DNA from: an uncultured Lachnospiraceae bacterium
GTDB taxonomy: Bacteria > Bacillota > Clostridia > Lachnospirales > Lachnospiraceae
DNA: 64,000 nt
NCBI GenBank assembly: GCA_947382645.1
Contig: CANDAE010000010.1
Coordinates: 52,097 to 116,096 of the forward strand
Reading direction: 5' to 3'
Part shown: positions 1,129 to 37,325 of the stretch, piece after piece
Layout: every line of letters starts with the position of its first letter
Position numbering within the stretch: position 1 is the stretch's first letter
Program-made: the position numbers and the translations under genes
Notes under the pieces: model-generated
What the model was told of the DNA's origin: nothing
What the model saw: only the letters and a program-made list of their open reading frames with translations
Databases searched by the model: none

Positions 1129-2853
1129 TTATTGCAATTTGAACTTATTTACTTCATCATTTAATTTTATGGAAATATTTTTGTTCAAATCTGCTTCTCC
1201 ACTGATATCTCTTACCCTCATAGTTAATTCTGATGACATTTCAGCTACATTTGTTATTCCCTGTGCGCTGTCTTCCATTGCATCATTTACCATAGAGACC
1301 GCATCCTTAATTCCATCAATGCTTTCCCGAAGCTTCCGGCTCTCTATGGCAAATTCTTCCATAAGACCGCCCATATTCCCCACATCATTCTGATAGCTTT
1401 CACTGGTTTCCAAAAGCTTTTGAAAACCTTCTATTGCTGTTTCACCCATAAAAGCAAGCATATTTTCCGCTTCCCTGGCAAGCTCTTCCACAGCTTCCGT
1501 CACATTATCGCTTACTTCACGAATCTGTGCTGCCGCCTGTGCGGAATTTGCCGCCAGTTTGCCAATTTCATTTGCAACTACTGCAAATCCCCTTCCGGCT
1601 TCTCCCGCCCTGGCAGCTTCTATACTTGCATTTAACGCAAGCAGATTTGTCTGTCCGGTAATGCTTATGATATTTGACGTCAATTCACCGATTTGCTCAA
1701 CTGTTCTGGACTTTTCTATTTTATCATTGACTGCCGCTGCCATAACCTGTGTCTTTTCATTGGCTTCTTTCTGGTTCTTAACAGCCGCCTGATAAATATC
1801 CGCTGCCTTCTTCATAATTTCTTCAGAGGAGCTTTGTCCTTCATCCGCCTTTTGGGAAATATCTTCAATTGCATGGTAGATGTCTCCAATGGAATCATGA
1901 ACCTGGCTTAAGGAGCAGCTTGTTTCTTCAACTGCCGCACTCATTTCCTCCATAGTTGCAGACACATCTGCAATATTTCCCTCCGCTTCAAAAAGGCTTT
2001 TTACTACATTTTTCGAAGAAACGCCCAACTGTTTTGAATTATCCGCAATATGAAGCATAATTGATCTGATATATTCCAGAAGTGCGTTAACATTTCCAGC
2101 AATCAGCTCCATTTCATCACCGGTTCGTATTTCCAGCTTTTGTGTCAGATCCCCTTCATTATGTACCAGTTCATATATTTTCTTATCTACCCGCTTAAGG
2201 CTCCTTGTAATGCTTCCTATAATCAGATATAGCAAGATAAGCGCTGCTGCCAGACAAATTGCTCCAAGTATAAATATCCATTGTCTTAATTGATTTAACT
2301 CATAAACCACATGAGACGCGTCATAATCACAGCCAAGAATTGCCGAAACTTTACCTTCCGAATCTAAAACAGGTTTATAAACCGAAATAAGATCCCCATC
2401 CTCTGTGGAATCAATGTAATCCTGTACATAAGCGTTTCCCTGAAAAACACTTTTCAGCTCTTCATACGGCGTATCAAACACATCCCCCGGCTGCATCTGC
2501 CCATCGCTTTCATCCGTATCTACTCCATAGTAGACCTGCTTTCCATCCGTATATAAGGTATACATATAAGCAATTCCAAAACTTTTCTGCATATTGCGCA
2601 TAACTGTCAGGAGCTTTTGGTATTCTTCCGTTTCCATACTGCCAGGCACAATTGCCTTCACCATATCGCCATCCACCATCTTTTGTGCGATTTCAGCCAC
2701 CATTCCGGCTTCTTCCACCCCTGTTGCAACCATCACGTTTTCCATGCGCTGAAAAGAATTAATTCCCATGACCAGGCAAATTCCAATCACTACTATGGTA
2801 ATTGGAAGCAGGATTTTAACCTTGATACTCATGATTCTTGATTTTTCCTTCAT
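1129..2853 (-). CDS. Methyl-accepting chemotaxis protein
   Basis: Two TM helices flank an extracellular sensor domain, followed by HAMP and the signalling hairpin [27 protein letters not shown]. Start placed at ATG 2853 after GGAGG; the longer ORF runs through a repeat element. Confidence 0.95.
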
Positions 2854-2864
2854 TTTTTCCTCCA

Positions 2865-2986
2865 TGCGGAGCTGTTTTTGCGAAGGCCGCGAGCCAAATT
2901 TCAAATTTGGCTCTGCGATATTGAGTTTGTGGCTCCGGCACAAACTCGTAGTTGAAAAATCAGCACATCAGTGTGATTTTTCAACC
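2865..2986. repeat. Three-hairpin dispersed repeat, copy 1 (122 bp; MITE-like or structured leader RNA)
   Basis: Matches 15800-15922 with 6 substitutions and 1 indel. Inverted repeats: gagccaaattt/aaatttggctc, gagtttgtg/cacaaactc and gttgaaaaatca/tgatttttcaac. Confidence 0.9.
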
Positions 2987-3086
2987 TTACTCCCATCTGC
3001 TCCTTTTAACAGGCACTTAAATACTCCCTTGTTATATTTTAACAAATTAGTCTGATAAAATCTATAGCTTCTTATTAATTTCCTAC

Positions 3087-3130
3087 AAAAAAGCAGCCTG
3101 CCCATATAACTATAAAAAGGACAAGCTGCT
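3087..3130 (-). terminator. Intrinsic terminator after the AhcY-family gene
   Basis: On the minus strand, agcagcttgtcc...gggcaggctgct is followed by a T run. Confidence 0.6.
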
Positions 3131-10558: not shown

Positions 10559-11611
10559 TTATTTTCCTGATACAAATTCATATGCTGCTTCATAATCATC
10601 CCAGGCAATAAACTCATCTAATTTATCAGCAGATACCGGAATAATCGGCAGTGAGATAAACTGTTCCGGTGTTTTTCCTTCCACCACTGCATCATATAAG
10701 TTCTGGAATGTCTGAACTCCCTGAATGGAAACAGGTGCTGTCATATTTGCTGCCTCAATGCCATCCTGCAGCATTTTGTAATCATCTGGAGATCCCCCTG
10801 TAGATACGATCGGAATATTTTCCATTCCTGCATCCTGCAGTGCCTGGTAGCATCCCTGCGCCATCATGCCATTGTTTGCAAAAACATAATCAAACTCTTC
10901 TCCTGACGCAATCAGATCAGTGGTCACATTATAAGCTTTATCTGTCAGCCAATCACCATGCAGAGTTGCCGCGATTTCCACTTTATCGCCAAATTCTTCT
11001 ATTGCACGGTCCACACCCTCCTGATATTTTTCATATACACCTGCCCCCTGCTGTCCTGCACAGAAAAATACTTTTGCACCAGGATGTACTTCTGAAATAT
11101 ACTTAATTGCTTCATATCCAATCTGATCATATTCGCAGGCAACACTGGCAATATAATCTCCCGGATCCGCAACGTCCATCTTAAAGTTCTCTACAGTGAC
11201 CGGAATTCCTGCTTCATTTGCCATCTTTACCAACTGTGCTCCCTGCTCTGTGGAAATCGGGAAAATAGAAATGCCATCAACGCCCTGCTGAATCAGAGAT
11301 TCCATTGCTGTCACAGAGTCTTCCAGACTGTTTTTAGAATCTAACACAACAGTTTCTACATTTACATCCGCCTGGGTTGCAGCATATTCAAATGCCTTTG
11401 CTGAATACTCATTCCAAATATCTGTCATATCATAAGCGATATACCCAAATGTATAACTGTCTTTCGCCTCTGCATCTGACTCCTGTGCTTCTGTTTCTGC
11501 TGCAGGCACCTCCTCTGTCACTGACGGCGCTTCCGGTTCACTTTTACCTCCACATGCCATCAACGAACATGCCATTACTGCACTGAGTAATACTGCTGTC
11601 ATCCTTTTCAT
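10559..11611 (-). CDS. Sugar ABC transporter substrate-binding lipoprotein
   Basis: Lipobox LMAC, an acidic E/A-rich linker and a periplasmic binding protein type 1 fold. Start at 11611 after GGAGG. Confidence 0.9.
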   Translation of the reverse strand: MKRMTAVLLSAVMACSLMACGGKSEPEAPSVTEEVPAAETEAQESDAEAKDSYTFGYIAYDMTDIWNEYSAKAFEYAATQADVNVETVVLDSKNSLEDSVTAMESLIQQGVDGISIFPISTEQGAQLVKMANEAGIPVTVENFKMDVADPGDYIASVACEYDQIGYEAIKYISEVHPGAKVFFCAGQQGAGVYEKYQEGVDRAIEEFGDKVEIAATLHGDWLTDKAYNVTTDLIASGEEFDYVFANNGMMAQGCYQALQDAGMENIPIVSTGGSPDDYKMLQDGIEAANMTAPVSIQGVQTFQNLYDAVVEGKTPEQFISLPIIPVSADKLDEFIAWDDYEAAYEFVSGK

Positions 11612-11673
11612 TTTTTGTCCTCCTGTAATTTTCTTTTCCTTTATCAAAAACACTATTGTGTCTTTTGAACTGC

Positions 11674-14970: not shown

Positions 14971-15783
14971 TTATAGAGAGGTTGCATCTACTGCCCATGC
15001 AAGGGCTTTATTAATGTGTCCGTTCCATATATACCACTCGTGGGTGCCCGGTGTTTCTTCATAGTAAAAAGATGCGTTTTCTTTTTTTAAAAATTTGTTA
15101 AGCGCCCTGCTGTGTTCCAGCACAAAGTCCTCTGTTCCGCAGGTCAGATAAATGTCAGGAATTTCTTCTTTGTCTTTTTTCAGCCTTTGATAAAGTATTT
15201 CCAGGTTTACCTCTGACTGCAGTAATTCTTTTGGCGAACCAAACATGGTGTTACAATAATCCTTCGTCATGCCATTCTCAAGAAAGAAATTTTTCTGTTC
15301 ATTGTAACCATAGCATACAATTCCAGGCGCCATAGATAAAATCTTACTGAATGTTTTATGGTTGCGCATTCCCAAATACAGGGCGCCAAAGCCTCCCATT
15401 GAAATTCCACCGATAAAGGTATCTTCTCTTTTGTCTGATACTGCCCGAAAGGTATCCCTTGTATAGTTTACGAATTCTTCCGCCACAAATTGTTCATAAT
15501 AAGCTTCTCGTTTTTTGCTGTCAAGGTAAAAAGAATTTTCACCTGCCGGCATAAATGCAGCTACATTATATTTAAGGCAAAAAGTTACAATCTGTGTGTA
15601 ATGAAGCCAGTCCGTGTGTCCTCCTGAATAACCTGACAGAAGATAAATTGTCTTCATTGGTCTTTTGTAACATTCGGAAATGCACTCGGGATGAACTGCC
15701 GCCCCATCTGTGGGTAAAATTCCTGTTGCAGGCACATAACGCCCTAATTTTTCAGAATAAAAATTAAATTCAAAAACTGCCAT
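14971..15783 (-). CDS. Alpha/beta-hydrolase esterase (acetylesterase/EstA-like)
   Basis: Nucleophile elbow GGISMGG, plus CGTEDF and GTHEW. Confidence 0.88.
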   Translation of the reverse strand: MAVFEFNFYSEKLGRYVPATGILPTDGAAVHPECISECYKRPMKTIYLLSGYSGGHTDWLHYTQIVTFCLKYNVAAFMPAGENSFYLDSKKREAYYEQFVAEEFVNYTRDTFRAVSDKREDTFIGGISMGGFGALYLGMRNHKTFSKILSMAPGIVCYGYNEQKNFFLENGMTKDYCNTMFGSPKELLQSEVNLEILYQRLKKDKEEIPDIYLTCGTEDFVLEHSRALNKFLKKENASFYYEETPGTHEWYIWNGHINKALAWAVDATSL

Positions 15784-15799
15784 TTATTATTTTCCTCCA

Positions 15800-15922
15800 T
15801 GCCGGAGCTGTTTTTGCGAAGGCCGCGAGCCAAATTTGAAATTTGGCTCTGCGATATCAAGTTTGTGGCTCCGGCACAAACTCGTGGTTTAAAAATCAGC
15901 ACATCAGTGTGATTTTTAAACC
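15800..15922. repeat. Three-hairpin dispersed repeat, copy 2 (123 bp), flanked by 10-bp direct repeats ttttcctcca
   Basis: Near-identical to 2865-2986. The 10-mer ttttcctcca occurs at 15790-15799 and 15923-15932. Confidence 0.9.
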
Positions 15923-15978
15923 TTTTCCTCCAATTCTTTTGTATAACTTCTATAAGCCAAACCCAGTCTGCCCTGATT

Positions 15979-20807: not shown

Positions 20808-21662
20808 TTATCCCTTTACTGCACCGTCCGCCATGCCCTTAATAATCTGCTTTTGAAATAGTAAAAAGAAAATAAGGGCCGGTAAAATTGATAACATCAA
20901 AGCTGCCATAATCAAATCCCAGCGGTTTAAATAGGTACCATAAAAGACGCTCATGGATAATTGAATCGTCTTCAGCTTTTCCGAATTAATCATAATAAGG
21001 GGCAGCATAAAATCATTAAATACCCCCAGCATATTAATAATTGCAATTGTTGCCGTAATGGGCTTTAAAATGGGAAATACCACATAAAAGAAAGCCTGGA
21101 ACTGGCCGCATCCGTCAATTAAAGCAGCTTCTTCAAGTTCTCTGGAGACACCTTTTATAAAACCGCAATACAAAAACATTGCCATTGGCATCAAAAACCC
21201 CCAGTACATAACAACCATTCCGTATAAAGTATTTACGATATGCAGATTTCTTGCCACAATCACGACAGGTACCATTAACACCTGAAAAGGAATTGCCATT
21301 GTAAATAAAATTCCATAGTAAATTACATTACTTATTTTATTTTTTACTCTTGTCACCTTATAAGCCGCCATAGAGCCAAACAAAATAATTCCCATCACAG
21401 CGGAAGCAGATACAAAAATGGTATTGGCAAACTTCCGGAAAAAGTTCATTTTGGAAACAGCTTCCCTGTAATTTCCAAAACTCCATTTTTCAGGCAGTGC
21501 AAGCATATCAAGCAAAATTTCTCCATTTCCTTTAAAACTGTTTACAAAAATTAAAACCATAGGAAACATCATAAAACAGGCTAATACCACAAGTACTGCT
21601 TCCACACAAAAAAGTCCCATGCCATACTTCCTTCTTTTTCCACCTTTTCCCTGTTTCATCAC
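20808..21662 (-). CDS. Carbohydrate ABC transporter permease (MalG-like)
   Basis: EAA loop ELEEAALIDG and FNDFMLPLI. Confidence 0.93.
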   Translation of the reverse strand: MMKQGKGGKRRKYGMGLFCVEAVLVVLACFMMFPMVLIFVNSFKGNGEILLDMLALPEKWSFGNYREAVSKMNFFRKFANTIFVSASAVMGIILFGSMAAYKVTRVKNKISNVIYYGILFTMAIPFQVLMVPVVIVARNLHIVNTLYGMVVMYWGFLMPMAMFLYCGFIKGVSRELEEAALIDGCGQFQAFFYVVFPILKPITATIAIINMLGVFNDFMLPLIMINSEKLKTIQLSMSVFYGTYLNRWDLIMAALMLSILPALIFFLLFQKQIIKGMADGAVKG

Positions 21663-25635: not shown

Positions 25636-27371
25636 TCCTGCTCCTTATTTTCTTTTGCTATTACAAACTCAACTGTTGTTTCCACTTTGGGTATACTTTG
25701 AATTTCCCAGTCAAATCTTTCTTCATAATAAATACTGCATCTTTGCAGCACATTTAATAAGCCAATTCCATGATCCGAGGCCGCAGTAAATTCATAATTT
25801 TTATAGGCTTCCTTCAATTTTTGTATCTGCTCCCTGCTCATACCAATTCCATTATCAATAACCCGTATCTGGTATTTATCCGGTTTTTCATTAATGGAAA
25901 TCATAATAGTTCCTGTTCCGTCCTTTTTGTCAATTCCATGCTTAATGCTGTTCTCCACAAGAGGCTGTAGAATCATTTTGGGAATAAGCAGGCTGCCTGC
26001 CTCTTTGGGATAATGAAGCATAAAATGGAGTCTTCCGGCAAATCTTCCCTCCTGCAGCGCAATATAGTTTTCAATATGCTTCAACTCTTTTTTAAGGGTA
26101 ACAATATCCTCTCCGGTATTCATTGTATATTGGAACAGTTCTCCTAACTGCGTCAACTGCATTGAAACTTCCTGGCAATGATGTTTCAGTGCAGTCGTGC
26201 TGATATATTGCAGCATATTATATAAAAAATGCGGATTGATTTGTGCCTGCAGCATTTTAAAACGGGATTTTGTCACCTCTAACTGATAACGATAATTTTT
26301 ATTGATCAGCTCATCCAGGTTTGTCATCATTTCCGCATACTTGTTTTCCAGAATTCCCAGCTCATCTTTGCGGTTTGATTTCGACTTATATACAAATTCG
26401 GGTTTTTGTTTAACCGCTTCCATATTATTAAGCATTCTTCTCACCGGAGAAATAAACAGATTAAACACCAGAAACAAAAATACTACGGATACTGCCAACA
26501 GACAGGCCTGTACTGCCATTGCCCCAATGACGACTCTCTCGGCAGGATCTGTAAACCAGTGATTATCTACAAACATAATAAGACGAACCTCTTCTCCTTT
26601 ATAGAAATCTCTTTTCAGAAAAAACATTCCCTTTGCTCCGTCCAATGTTCCTTTGGTATAATGTTTTTCTAAAAGTTCTTTTTCTGCATAATCGGCATTT
26701 TCAAAAAAACCTGACGTATAAATCAGTTCTCTGCCATCTTCTCCAAGGCAGACCATAACCACATTGTCTTTATACTGTCCGCATAATGTTTTTGTCACCT
26801 CCTGTAATTCTTTTAAATCTGCAAAAATGCGCATACTGACAGCAGTGTCATAAGATGGAACATTCTGAATATCCATATTGTAAATTAAATAAACTGGATT
26901 TCCCACTTCGTCTCTTCCCACCTGAAAAATATCTCCACTCCGCTCCGGATATTGATACTCTCCAATTTCCATCCTTCTTTGTGCATTCGCATAAACGCCA
27001 TTAATGACCTCCCCATTTTTGCAGTACATCACAATACGAAAAATTGCAGGCGCTTTATCACTGACAGCTTTGCCGTATTTACGTACCATATAACGCTCTA
27101 CATCTGTAAACTTTGTTTTTCGATTTAATATTCTGACAACATCCGGATTTTCAAATAAATTCATAGGCGCCTGTTCTATCCTGCGGATAAAATTTATTGT
27201 CTCCTCCATGCCAATTCCCATCATGCTTTCATTCCAGTCAATAATCTGCTGCTGCATCATATGGTAATTCTGCCTGTATGCAATCACATTAGATATGATA
27301 CTTGGCAAAATAATAACCAACATTAGTAGTGCAATCAGTTTCATAAAAAGGCTGTTTTTAATTTTATCCAT
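25632..27371 (-). CDS. Sensor histidine kinase (YesM/LytS-like)
   Basis: Motifs LQAQINPHFLYN, LQPLVENSIKHG, DNGIG and GIGLLNV, with two TM segments. Confidence 0.93.
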   Translation of the reverse strand: MDKIKNSLFMKLIALLMLVIILPSIISNVIAYRQNYHMMQQQIIDWNESMMGIGMEETINFIRRIEQAPMNLFENPDVVRILNRKTKFTDVERYMVRKYGKAVSDKAPAIFRIVMYCKNGEVINGVYANAQRRMEIGEYQYPERSGDIFQVGRDEVGNPVYLIYNMDIQNVPSYDTAVSMRIFADLKELQEVTKTLCGQYKDNVVMVCLGEDGRELIYTSGFFENADYAEKELLEKHYTKGTLDGAKGMFFLKRDFYKGEEVRLIMFVDNHWFTDPAERVVIGAMAVQACLLAVSVVFLFLVFNLFISPVRRMLNNMEAVKQKPEFVYKSKSNRKDELGILENKYAEMMTNLDELINKNYRYQLEVTKSRFKMLQAQINPHFLYNMLQYISTTALKHHCQEVSMQLTQLGELFQYTMNTGEDIVTLKKELKHIENYIALQEGRFAGRLHFMLHYPKEAGSLLIPKMILQPLVENSIKHGIDKKDGTGTIMISINEKPDKYQIRVIDNGIGMSREQIQKLKEAYKNYEFTAASDHGIGLLNVLQRCSIYYEERFDWEIQSIPKVETTVEFVIAKENKEQE

Positions 27372-36011: not shown

Positions 36012-37325
36012 ATGAACATAGTTTTATTATCCGGCGGCTCAGGCAAACGATTATGGCCGCTATCCAACGATATTCGTTCCAAACAGTTTATTAAAATTTT
36101 CAAAACACCGGAAGGCGGCTATGAATCTATGGTGCAGCGCGTTTATCATCAGATTCGTAAGGCTGATGAAAATGCCACCATCACCATTGCCACATCCAAA
36201 ACACAGGTATCTGCAATTCACAATCAATTAGGTGATAATGTGGGTATTTCCGTAGAGCCCTGCAGAAGAGATACCTTTCCGGCAATTGCCCTGGCAACCG
36301 CTTACCTTCATGATGTTCTGGGCATTTCCAGGGAAGAATCTGTGGTAGTCTGTCCCGTGGATCCTTACGTGGAGGATGATTATTTTGAAATGATTAAGAA
36401 ATTAAGTCTTCAGGCAGATAAGGGAGAAGCAAATCTGGTTTTAATGGGAATTGAACCTACCTACCCCAGTGAAAAGTATGGTTATATCATCCCGGAAAAC
36501 AGTAATTTTATCAGTGATGTTTCCTGCTTTAAAGAAAAACCTGATGTAAAAACTGCCAAAGAATATATTTCCCAGGGAGCTTTGTGGAATGGAGGCGTGT
36601 TTGCTTATAAGTTAAAGTACGTCCTTGATAAAGCACATGAATTAATTGACTTTACTGACTATGAAGATTTGTTTTCCAGGTATGAAACTTTAACTAAAAT
36701 AAGTTTTGACTATGCAGTGGTGGAAAAAGAAAGTAAAATTCAGGTAATGCGTTTTTCCGGCCAGTGGAAGGATCTGGGCACCTGGAATACCCTGACGGAA
36801 GCAATGGAAGAGCCTAATGTTGGAGAAGCTGTAATGAATGAAACATGCAGCAATGTTCACATTATTAATGAACTTGATGTTCCCATTCTTGCGATGGGAT
36901 TATCTGACGTAGTTATCTCAGCCAGCCCGGATGGCATTCTGGTTTCAGATAAAGAGCAGTCAAGTTACATTAAGCCTTTTGTTGATAAATTTGACCAGCA
37001 GATTATGTTTGCAGAAAAATCCTGGGGAAGTTTTCGGGTACTGGATGTAGAATCAGGCAGTATGACCATAAAAGTTATTTTAAACCCGGGACATAAAATG
37101 AACTATCACAGTCATAAACACAGGGATGAAATCTGGGTAGTTATCTCCGGCACAGGACATACTGTTGTAGACGGAATGGAACAAAAAGTCAGCGCCGGTG
37201 ACGTAATCACCATGCAGGCCGGATGTCGTCATACTATTTTTGCCGATACAGAATTAAAGCTGATCGAGGTTCAATTAGGCAAGGAAATCAGTGTTCATGA
37301 TAAACAAAAATTTGCACTTGAATAA
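36012..37325 (+). CDS. manC: Mannose-1-phosphate guanylyltransferase with C-terminal cupin
   Basis: Motifs LSGGSGKRLWPLS, VEPCRRDT, YGYI, FKEKP, SFDYAVVE, WKDLGTW and EKSWG...H. Confidence 0.88.
   Translation: MNIVLLSGGSGKRLWPLSNDIRSKQFIKIFKTPEGGYESMVQRVYHQIRKADENATITIATSKTQVSAIHNQLGDNVGISVEPCRRDTFPAIALATAYLHDVLGISREESVVVCPVDPYVEDDYFEMIKKLSLQADKGEANLVLMGIEPTYPSEKYGYIIPENSNFISDVSCFKEKPDVKTAKEYISQGALWNGGVFAYKLKYVLDKAHELIDFTDYEDLFSRYETLTKISFDYAVVEKESKIQVMRFSGQWKDLGTWNTLTEAMEEPNVGEAVMNETCSNVHIINELDVPILAMGLSDVVISASPDGILVSDKEQSSYIKPFVDKFDQQIMFAEKSWGSFRVLDVESGSMTIKVILNPGHKMNYHSHKHRDEIWVVISGTGHTVVDGMEQKVSAGDVITMQAGCRHTIFADTELKLIEVQLGKEISVHDKQKFALE

Follow-up and report, generated by a model that had tools for sequence, protein, structure and literature searches.

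A modular dispersed repeat with its own Shine-Dalgarno sequence at start codons of an uncultured Lachnospiraceae bacterium

Related intergenic repeats

The repeats REP2 (Neisseria, CREN) and IR-A/IR-B (Borrelia) have been reviewed by Delihas 2011 (PMC3184786); REP2 and IR-A are 120-150 bp long, have no inverted termini, contain internal stem-loops, bear a ribosome-binding site (RBS) and lie directly 5′ of genes. Here, we analyzed a repeat of similar description in 64,000 nucleotides of DNA from an uncultured Lachnospiraceae bacterium (contig CANDAE010000010.1 of assembly GCA_947382645.1, positions 52,097 to 116,096; this whole stretch is called the window). Its reference copy (copy 1, 2856-2988, minus strand) runs from an AAGG|TTG 5′ junction to a Shine-Dalgarno (SD) sequence of its own and a run of A's, immediately upstream of a gene for a methyl-accepting chemotaxis protein (MCP). 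A second copy (copy 2, 15791-15924, minus strand) lies 5′ of an esterase gene; both belong to subfamily A of the repeat. We consider it likely that copy 1 is one member of a dispersed family of modular repeats, non-coding and about 110-170 nt long, which occur widely in Lachnospiraceae and supply an RBS where they are inserted. The element is probably a once-mobile hitch-hiker of genomes rather than a regulator peculiar to the chemotaxis gene.

Likened by description, Neisseria REP2 and Borrelia IR-A appear to be the closest functional analogues. As in those families, the copies are dispersed between genes, have no terminal inverted repeats, contain internal stem-loops, lie 5′ of unrelated open reading frames (ORFs), carry an RBS and number in the tens. 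In contrast, a promoter and an ATG are described for REP2 and IR-A, while the Lachnospiraceae element has no promoter-like site and its ATG and spacer are those of the host gene; it also combines three hairpins (H1, H2 and H3) with a putative loop-tail pseudoknot, and is found in another phylum. Pneumococcal BOX, enterobacterial REP/BIME and ERIC elements are likewise modular, hairpin-forming intergenic repeats, co-transcribed as this element would be, in which modules are absent or duplicated as H1-H3 are here, but they have no tie to start codons, can lie in either orientation or follow stop codons, and supply no SD. No published description of this Lachnospiraceae repeat family was found in full-text literature searches. 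What distinguishes it from other structured intergenic repeats that bear an RBS is the landing slot between SD and ATG, the replacement of the SD and the proposed pseudoknot between a loop and an anti-SD-like sequence.

A repeat family at start codons

The sequence-only reading of the window had noted three hairpins in copy 1, and all three are present on the minus strand, the sense strand of both copies. H1 (2950-2986) has the arms GGTTGAAAAATCA/TGATTTTTCAAC, 12-13 bp and a conserved YUGAUR loop. H2 (2923-2947) pairs GAGTTTGTG with CACAAACTC over 9 bp, with a loop, CCGGAGC (2932-2938), complementary to the tail of the element. H3 (2888-2917) reads (CGC)aGAGCCAAATT/AATTTGGCTC(GCG) and has 3 + 10 bp and a bulged A; it is a modular stem that varies more than any other in the family. 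The 24-nt tail after H3 contains the segment GCUCCG with an anti-SD-like CUCC (2867-2872); owing to a 1-nt deletion, this tail has 6 bp with the hairpin-2 loop in copy 1 compared to 8 bp in copy 2. The element's SD, GGAGG (2859-2863), is followed by five A's and the ATG at 2851-2853, a spacing of 5 nt. The predicted RNA fold of the element has −55.1 kcal/mol compared to −33.3 ± 3.8 for dinucleotide shuffles (z = −5.7), and the antisense strand folds nearly as well, as palindromic stems would lead one to expect. The H1 pattern has 0 matches expected in 100 shuffles.

In copy 2, H1 lies at 15886-15922, H2 at 15859-15883 (loop 15868-15874) and H3 at 15824-15853; the tail GCUCCGGC (15801-15808) and the SD (15794-15798) precede the esterase ATG (15781-15783), all on the minus strand. 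Pairwise alignment of the two copies reproduced the 6 substitutions and 1 indel within the element that had been counted from the sequence. It also bore out the compensatory pair, which had been assigned to hairpin 3 in plus-strand numbering and is a G-C to U-A change in sense-strand H1 (GGTTG...CAAC versus GGTTT...AAAC), and the change at the centre of what was then called hairpin 1, which is a G/C difference at the centre of the H3 loop.

The gene downstream of copy 1 encodes a 574-aa MCP with HAMP/MCPsignal domains (Pfam; 1129-2853, minus strand), and its SD-preceded ATG at 2853 is the start called in other assemblies. A listed 604-aa ORF from a TTG at 2943 reads through hairpins 2 and 3 and is a trap for gene callers. 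Just 3′ of the stop of the upstream gene ahcY there is a terminator-like hairpin, AGCAGCTTGTCC...GGGCAGGCTGCT followed by TTTTTT (3086-3130, minus strand), which a consensus terminator scanner missed because its loop is longer than 8 nt. If this hairpin works as a terminator, the MCP gene has a 5′ leader of its own, in which copy 1 stands, and there is no cistron junction here.

The genome-wide search proposed by the sequence-only reading gave 24 BLAST matches in the bacterium's own genome (3.70 Mb, 61 contigs), and nhmmer gave 32, of which 16 are full length. Three subfamilies (A, B and C) were found, and the A copies are 94-97% identical to copy 1. Subfamily A has the H1 5′ arm GGTTGAAAAATCA, the H2 arm and loop GAGTTTGTG-ccggagc, the H3 5′ arm GAGCCAAATT and the tail GCTCCGGCATGGAGG. 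The corresponding parts are GGTTGAATAAATT, GAATTTGTG-ccgaagcgt, GAGCGAAAT and CGCTTCGGAATGGAGG in subfamily B, and AGTGTGAAAAATCACAC, TATTTGTG-ccggagcgt, GACGCAAAT and CGCTCCGGAATGGAG in subfamily C. H3 is missing in the copies on C18 and C48 and H2 in the copy at C1:162 kb; the copy at C3:70 kb consists of H1 and tail, that on C53 of the two ends, and those on C21 and C25 of the tail alone. Since copies without one or two modules occur, the family is modular.

Every match that retains the 3′ tail has the start codon of a same-strand ORF (88 to ~2000 aa) within 2-16 nt, so that with 32 nhmmer matches, the tail-bearing ones all gene-oriented, the family is neither confined to two copies nor randomly oriented. 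Seventeen of the 32 matches stand at cistron junctions, at most 100 nt from where a co-directional upstream ORF stops. The downstream products (Pfam) include YqeY, a Phd/YefM antitoxin, OppC, an exonuclease, ATP synthase beta (atpD), a type II dehydroquinase (aroQ), pyrroline-5-carboxylate reductase (proC), Ham1, DnaJ, a phosphopantetheinyl transferase, the MCP and the esterase; these genes are functionally unrelated and have nothing in common. The 5′ ends of the element are GGTTGAAAAATC / AGTGTGAAAAAT, and the conserved 3′ end is ...GCUCCGG-C/A-AUGGAGG-AAAA, or GCTCCGG(A/C)ATGGAG as DNA. In all copies the ...ATGGAGG 3′ end stands 4-10 nt before the start codon, and the ATG with its spacer aligns with empty orthologous sites while the SD-to-ATG spacing varies within these 4-10 nt. 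An RBS supplied by the element, as the sequence-only reading had suggested, is therefore present at each of these genes.

Could the element be translated? Supply et al. 1997 are said to have described mycobacterial interspersed repetitive units (MIRUs) as short repeats within operons, oriented with the flanking genes and proposed to act via small overlapping ORFs. The Lachnospiraceae repeat resembles MIRUs in being intergenic in operons, gene-oriented and compatible with translation of the downstream cistron. A MIRU-like mini-ORF that couples translation between cistrons would fit the TTG found in A copies 6 nt after the displaced SD, which opens a 27-codon frame, and the location of about half of the copies at cistron junctions. 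Yet this frame stops in the H3 loop in subfamily A and in the tail in B, and in C it runs out of frame with the gene; the lengths of the indels between subfamilies (GT in the H2 loop, variable H3 inserts) are not divisible by three; and the stem substitutions are compensatory and not synonymous. MIRUs further differ in forming variable tandem arrays, whereas the present element has hairpins, its own SD and no conserved frame, and the small ORF overlapping stop and start was not found. Given the internal stops, the frame-breaking indels and the lack of a reading frame conserved between subfamilies, a small coding ORF was rejected, and translational coupling of this kind is almost certainly not the role of the element.

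A shorter D-type repeat, GGTTGAATAAAAATGCGTATTCAACC-TATTGATTTG-CACGCGCGCAGCAGCGCGCAG-ATGGGTATAA, directly adjoins A or B copies in tandem (C13 ~36340-36411, C15 ~21200-21285 and C2 ~138040-138110). Owing to an ATG in its first loop, gene callers falsely extend two unrelated proteins at the N terminus (MRIQPIDLYARS...). Upstream of the tandem D-type and A-type copies and the antitoxin gene on C13, there is an Rfam Clostridiales-1 match below threshold (31.4 bits compared to a gathering score of 48; L002 1152-1317, which is C13 ~36063-36228, minus strand). An FMN riboswitch (113 bits; L016 2539-2684, on C27) lies about 1 kb from a copy of subfamily C. Within the window, 11596-11635 and 26775-26814 form a 40-nt direct repeat of 70% identity over two minus-strand SD and start regions, which is probably a chance likeness of ribosome-binding regions.

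Species-representative genomes were scanned with a pattern of the H2 core, TTTGTGCCGRAGC(N0-2)CACAAA. At least 119 stretches matched, and among the matches listed nearly all are from Lachnospiraceae (Acetatifactor, Roseburia, Eisenbergiella, Kineothrix, Lachnospira, Cuneatibacter, Parablautia intestinalis and Fimimorpha), together with a few other Clostridia (Bianquea renquensis and a metagenome-assembled genome (MAG) of Anaerovoracaceae) and one "Bacteroidales" MAG. Cultured carriers include Parablautia intestinalis D8-82 and Bianquea renquensis NSJ-32, with family copies in L060 and in L044/L065. A covariance model (R1) built from 12 copies of this genome detected 85 copies in the 80 pattern-scan loci searched. 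By a crude ORF test, the start codon of an ORF with 60 codons or more lies no further than about 20 nt from the tail in most foreign copies, and no blastn match to the element was found in plasmid or phage collections. In most foreign copies the AUG of the tail (GGA-AUG-GAG) lies exactly 12 nt before the real start and in frame with it, e.g., ATGGAGATTAATATG; this probably reflects a preferred SD-to-start spacing, and it invites mis-calling of the start by 4 codons.

Covariation of the hairpins and a putative pseudoknot

The sequence-only reading had inferred from two copies that structure is conserved and not sequence only. Covariation was computed on the 85-copy alignment, which had been fitted to H1-H3 and so favours them, but had not been fitted to the loop-tail pairing. 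For the three hairpins and the loop-tail pairing together, 95.3% of the cells are paired and 33 of the 44 pairs show double changes, which none of 500 shuffles reached; the inference is thus supported. With slid 3′ partners, pairing falls to 33-45%. Double changes occur in all 13 pairs of H1 and in 12 of the 13 pairs of H3, which accepts extra hairpins at its tip; almost every pair of H1 and H3 has changed between lineages.

The loop-tail pairing alone is 93.1% paired compared to at most 41% when slid. Its variable position is G-C in 46 copies, A-U in 19, G-U in 12 and other in 4, and both states of this pair are found on several H1/H3 backgrounds. The complementarity and covariation of the hairpin-2 loop with the CUCC tail suggest a pseudoknot. 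The tail CUCC (CUUC in subfamily B) lies 5 nt 5′ of the SD, and because of this closeness it has two possible partners, the SD or the H2 loop. The predicted loop:tail duplex has −16.5 to −18.9 kcal/mol, compared to −3.4 to −5.0 for the local CUCC:GGAG pairing. In a nested-only model the mean unpaired probability of the SD is 0.32, and it is 0.25 for tail and SD alone; when the pseudoknot strands are blocked, it rises to 0.49.

Two mutually exclusive pairings of the tail could also serve regulation. The element would then be a cis-regulatory leader in which CUCC masks the SD unless the hairpin-2 loop captures CUCC, and a protein, a small RNA or a temperature shift acting on the loop-tail pairing would co-regulate all carrier genes as a trans-controlled translational regulon. 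The prediction that the SD is mostly paired without the pseudoknot (unpaired probability 0.25-0.32) agrees with this proposal, as does the conservation across genera of two unpaired motifs, YUGAUR in the H1 loop and UGAU(G/C)GCAGA between H2 and H3; in addition, Neisseria REP2 repeats have been reported to mark a co-regulated gene set (PMC3184786). However, the pseudoknot is far more stable than the masking hairpin, and therefore the default state would be "on". The downstream genes have no common function and some are constitutive housekeeping genes, their orthologues in related species have no element, decayed and truncated copies are common, and the 94-97% identity within the genome suggests recent spread and not ancient conserved leaders. 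We therefore hold such a regulon to be unlikely, while a general effect of the element on mRNA or translation is possible. A cis-regulatory leader RNA shared by unrelated genes, the other possibility raised from the sequence, is likewise not supported as a riboswitch or gene-specific regulator: the downstream Pfam families are unrelated and orthologous junctions in relatives are empty.

Whether the element is a known structured RNA was addressed with Rfam 15, in which nothing in the window reached the gathering threshold. The Rfam comparison suggested by the sequence-only reading thus gave no family assignment at threshold, but it did give a sub-threshold antisense match of the A copies to TD-2. 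TD-1 and TD-2 are multi-copy motifs reported in Treponema denticola only (Weinberg et al. 2007, PMC1950547), and TD-1 is said to lie 5′ of unrelated genes and to overlap, in part, with reverse complements of TD-2 (PMC1950547). All A copies match RF03162 over the full model (1-98/98) in antisense with 33.0-38.7 bits (E = 1.2e-4 in a 261-nt search), and they share the stems GAGUUU/AAACUC and UGAAAA/UUUUCA as well as the three-hairpin architecture. These agreements would allow the element to be a member of TD-2/TD-1, in which case it would be an independently transcribed gene for a structured non-coding RNA, possibly made from the antisense strand. In contrast, the A copies stay 10-15 bits under the gathering score (48.7 bits) and match in antisense only, subfamilies B and C have no match, TD-1 gave no listed match and the best sense-strand match of the clan is TD-2 at 19 bits, and the host belongs to another phylum. 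SD supply and insertion sites are not described for TD-1/TD-2. No sigma-70-like promoter or terminator consensus match was found within copy 1 or copy 2, which speaks against a small RNA gene, and the strict orientation and the abutment to start codons fit a co-transcribed insert. Taken together, membership in TD-2/TD-1 is improbable, and it is plausible that TD-2 is a distant relative of the Lachnospiraceae family. A single sub-threshold match to the Streptococcus small RNA Spd-sr07 (37 bits compared to 55) was seen on H1 of copy 2 (L006 1598-1654, sense) and in no other copy.

Insertion sites and candidate movers

The esterase junction, which carries copy 2 in the window, is free of the element in 4 metagenome contigs (L156-L159) with the same HAD-esterase order and 86-89% amino-acid identity. 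The empty junctions read ...AAAGGAGGAAAAT(A/C)AAAAATGGCA, with the intergenic sequence ...GATAAAGGAGGAAAATAAAAAATGGCA, while the filled junction reads ...AATTGGAGGAAAA, then the element GGTTTAAAAATCA...GCTCCGGCATGGAGGAAAA, then TAATAAATGGCA. Comparison of the empty and filled junctions therefore places the insert between the native SD and the ATG; the native SD of the esterase gene, GGAGG (15927-15931, minus strand), has been pushed about 135 nt upstream by copy 2. An identical 10-nt sequence, TGGAGGAAAA, flanks copy 2 at 15790-15799 and 15923-15932. It was considered as a target-site duplication and rejected, because every A copy has TGGAGGAAAA as its conserved 3′ end; the repeat around copy 2 is perfect because the native SD there is itself GGAGGAAAA, as seen in the empty orthologues.

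A second pair of sites (L039/C17) separates the two flanks clearly. The empty site is GACAGGAGGCAATAA|TCATGG, and the filled site is ACAGACGGTAATAG, then the element TGTGAAAAAT...GGAAATGGAGGATTA, then TCATGG. The 5′ flank GACGGTAATAG is a decayed orthologue of the native GGAGGCAATAA and GGAGGATTA on the 3′ side is the conserved terminus of the element itself, which shows that the 5′ flank is a decaying native SD and that the 3′ SD belongs to the element. In agreement with this, the 3′ end is CATGGAGGAA in all A copies, irrespective of the 5′ flank. The flanks at copy 2 had invited the idea of a classical MITE (a miniature transposable element with inverted repeats) derived from a DDE transposon, with TGGAGGAAAA on both sides as its target-site duplication. 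This is highly improbable: terminal inverted repeats are lacking, GGTTGAAAAATC at the 5′ end bearing no relation to GCTCCGGCATGGAGG at the 3′ end; CATGGAGGAAAA is found at the 3′ side of all A copies while the 5′ flanks vary (GGGAGTAA, GGGTATAA, GGGAGAAA, AGAAGAAAA and others); the native SD at copy 2 happens to be GGAGGAAAA; and the two sides differ clearly in the L039/C17 pair, other filled and empty pairs also being without a duplication.

For the converse comparison, 17 foreign filled sites had orthologous flanks in this genome, and 15 were examined. About 10 of the 15 junctions read as empty here (e.g., L039/C17, L074/C31, L097/C5 and L068/C3), while several others look like degraded remnants (e.g., C7:62.4 kb and C26:50.3 kb). 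At aroQ, this genome carries the element and the site in L067 is empty. The search for empty alleles that the sequence-only reading had called for thus succeeded between related species and found none within the species at the three junctions compared. In 43 of 84 foreign copies, GGAG or GAGG is found within the 14 nt of the 5′ junction, compared to 9 of 84 and 3 of 84 in two upstream control windows. Many of these SD-like flanks are the tail of another family member in tandem or nested copies, examples in this genome being C13:36.3 kb, C15:21.2 kb and C2:138.1 kb. In copy 1, the 5′ flank contains an SD-like GGGAG (2990-2994, minus strand), which is either a displaced older RBS or the tail of an older related element; the flank GCAGATGGGAGTAA (2989-3000) is similar to the D-type tail GCAGATGGGTATAA. 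Presence in some species and absence in others suggests that the element has been mobile, and together with the multiple co-oriented copies, their own SD and the SD-rich 5′ flanks it argues for the non-autonomous mobile element supplying RBSs that had been one of the two initial proposals.

We propose that each copy inserted, in one orientation, into the few bases between an SD and a start codon. The old SD would be displaced about 130 nt upstream and be free to decay, and the conserved 3′ end of the element would give a replacement SD at the normal spacing of 4-10 nt; it is because of this new SD that the insert can be tolerated before atpD, dnaJ, aroQ and proC. Co-transcribed with the gene, the element would fold into three independent hairpins, and the hairpin-2 loop may pair with the CUCC tail just 5′ of the SD to form the pseudoknot. 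This would capture an anti-SD-like sequence that could otherwise mask the SD, and so keep the SD available in any genomic context.

The absence of terminal inverted repeats and of a target duplication points to a site-specific recombinase or a single-stranded-DNA transposase acting in trans, and insertion in one orientation at a defined sequence, without duplication or inverted repeats, excludes ordinary DDE transposition. The candidate movers would be a DEDD recombinase of the IS110/IS1111 type with its bridge/seek RNA, a single-strand transposase of the HUH/Y1 type, or template switching at SD microhomology. If their ends are intact, mini-elements of IS110/IS1111 can be mobilized by enzyme and RNA provided in trans, without the addition of bases (PMC11187229); the hed ORF of IS900 depends on host signals (PMC8141618). 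The Lachnospiraceae element shares with IS900/IS901/IS902 and IS110/IS1111 the single orientation, the defined sequence, the absence of terminal inverted repeats and the absence of added bases; it differs in having no transposase gene, so that the link to these elements is a hypothesis of mobilization. IS900-type elements reportedly insert between RBS and start codon, as Doran et al. 1997 are said to have described. An SD-targeting enzyme of the IS110/IS1111 type would be the most attractive mover. The copies here are probably fossils, since no IS110/IS1111-type enzyme is detectable in this genome; a multi-copy repeat resembling an insertion sequence was likewise not found in it.

Several points weigh against an RBS-supplying mobile insert. 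Motif scans and tblastn with an approximate pseudo-consensus, both weak tests, detected no DEDD/IS110 enzyme in the genome or in the foreign loci analyzed, and tblastn of the genome with an approximate IS608 TnpA query gave a best E of 0.49, a weak negative for the Y1 HUH transposase or RAYT that an IS200/IS605-derived element (PATE) or a REP/RAYT system would need. No autonomous version, in which a long insert would split the 5′ and 3′ modules, occurs among ~150 copies. These weak negatives fit fossil copies. No polymorphism was seen within the species: at the three junctions compared (ahcY-MCP, HAD-esterase and holA-yqeY), all same-species assemblies are filled. The copies are fixed there, with no sign of recent movement. 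Some of the "empty" sites could be deletions, and several sites here resemble degraded remnants. The loop-tail covariation rests essentially on one pair in addition to 7-9 nt of complementarity because the search pattern fixed the other loop positions. Finally, G-U compared to A-C counts are 77:58 for the nested pairs and 37:22 for the pseudoknot, too small an excess to tell selection on a sense-strand RNA from selection on DNA.

A more specific origin, which we regard as rather unlikely, is that the family is the transposase-less progeny of an RNA-guided IS110-type system that targets the slot between SD and start; the match of the loop to the 3′ end would then be a guide-to-donor pairing and not only, or not, a pseudoknot. 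If so, a natural system would have rewritten the translation-initiation regions of ~1% of gut Lachnospiraceae genes, housekeeping operons included, and were the mover an RNA-guided recombinase programmed for the SD, the family would count among the rare natural cases of a non-autonomous partner to such a system.

Same-species short-read contigs (Logan; L147-L155 and L162-L163) break about 35 nt upstream of the esterase and yqeY starts, inside the repeat. For annotation and assembly, the family means that start codons are mis-called, as with the 604-aa ORF that extends into copy 1, and that short-read assemblies break inside the element. Its copies also mimic riboswitch or small RNA candidates in RNA-motif searches and can be mistaken for gene-specific regulators. 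The insertion appears to be rendered harmless through replacement of the very signal that it displaces, and the element would be a compact natural "portable RBS with insulating structure" that is testable in synthetic operons. Taken together, these results suggest that about 1 gene in 100 of this genome is translated from an RBS donated by a repeat, and the same appears to be true of many gut Lachnospiraceae.

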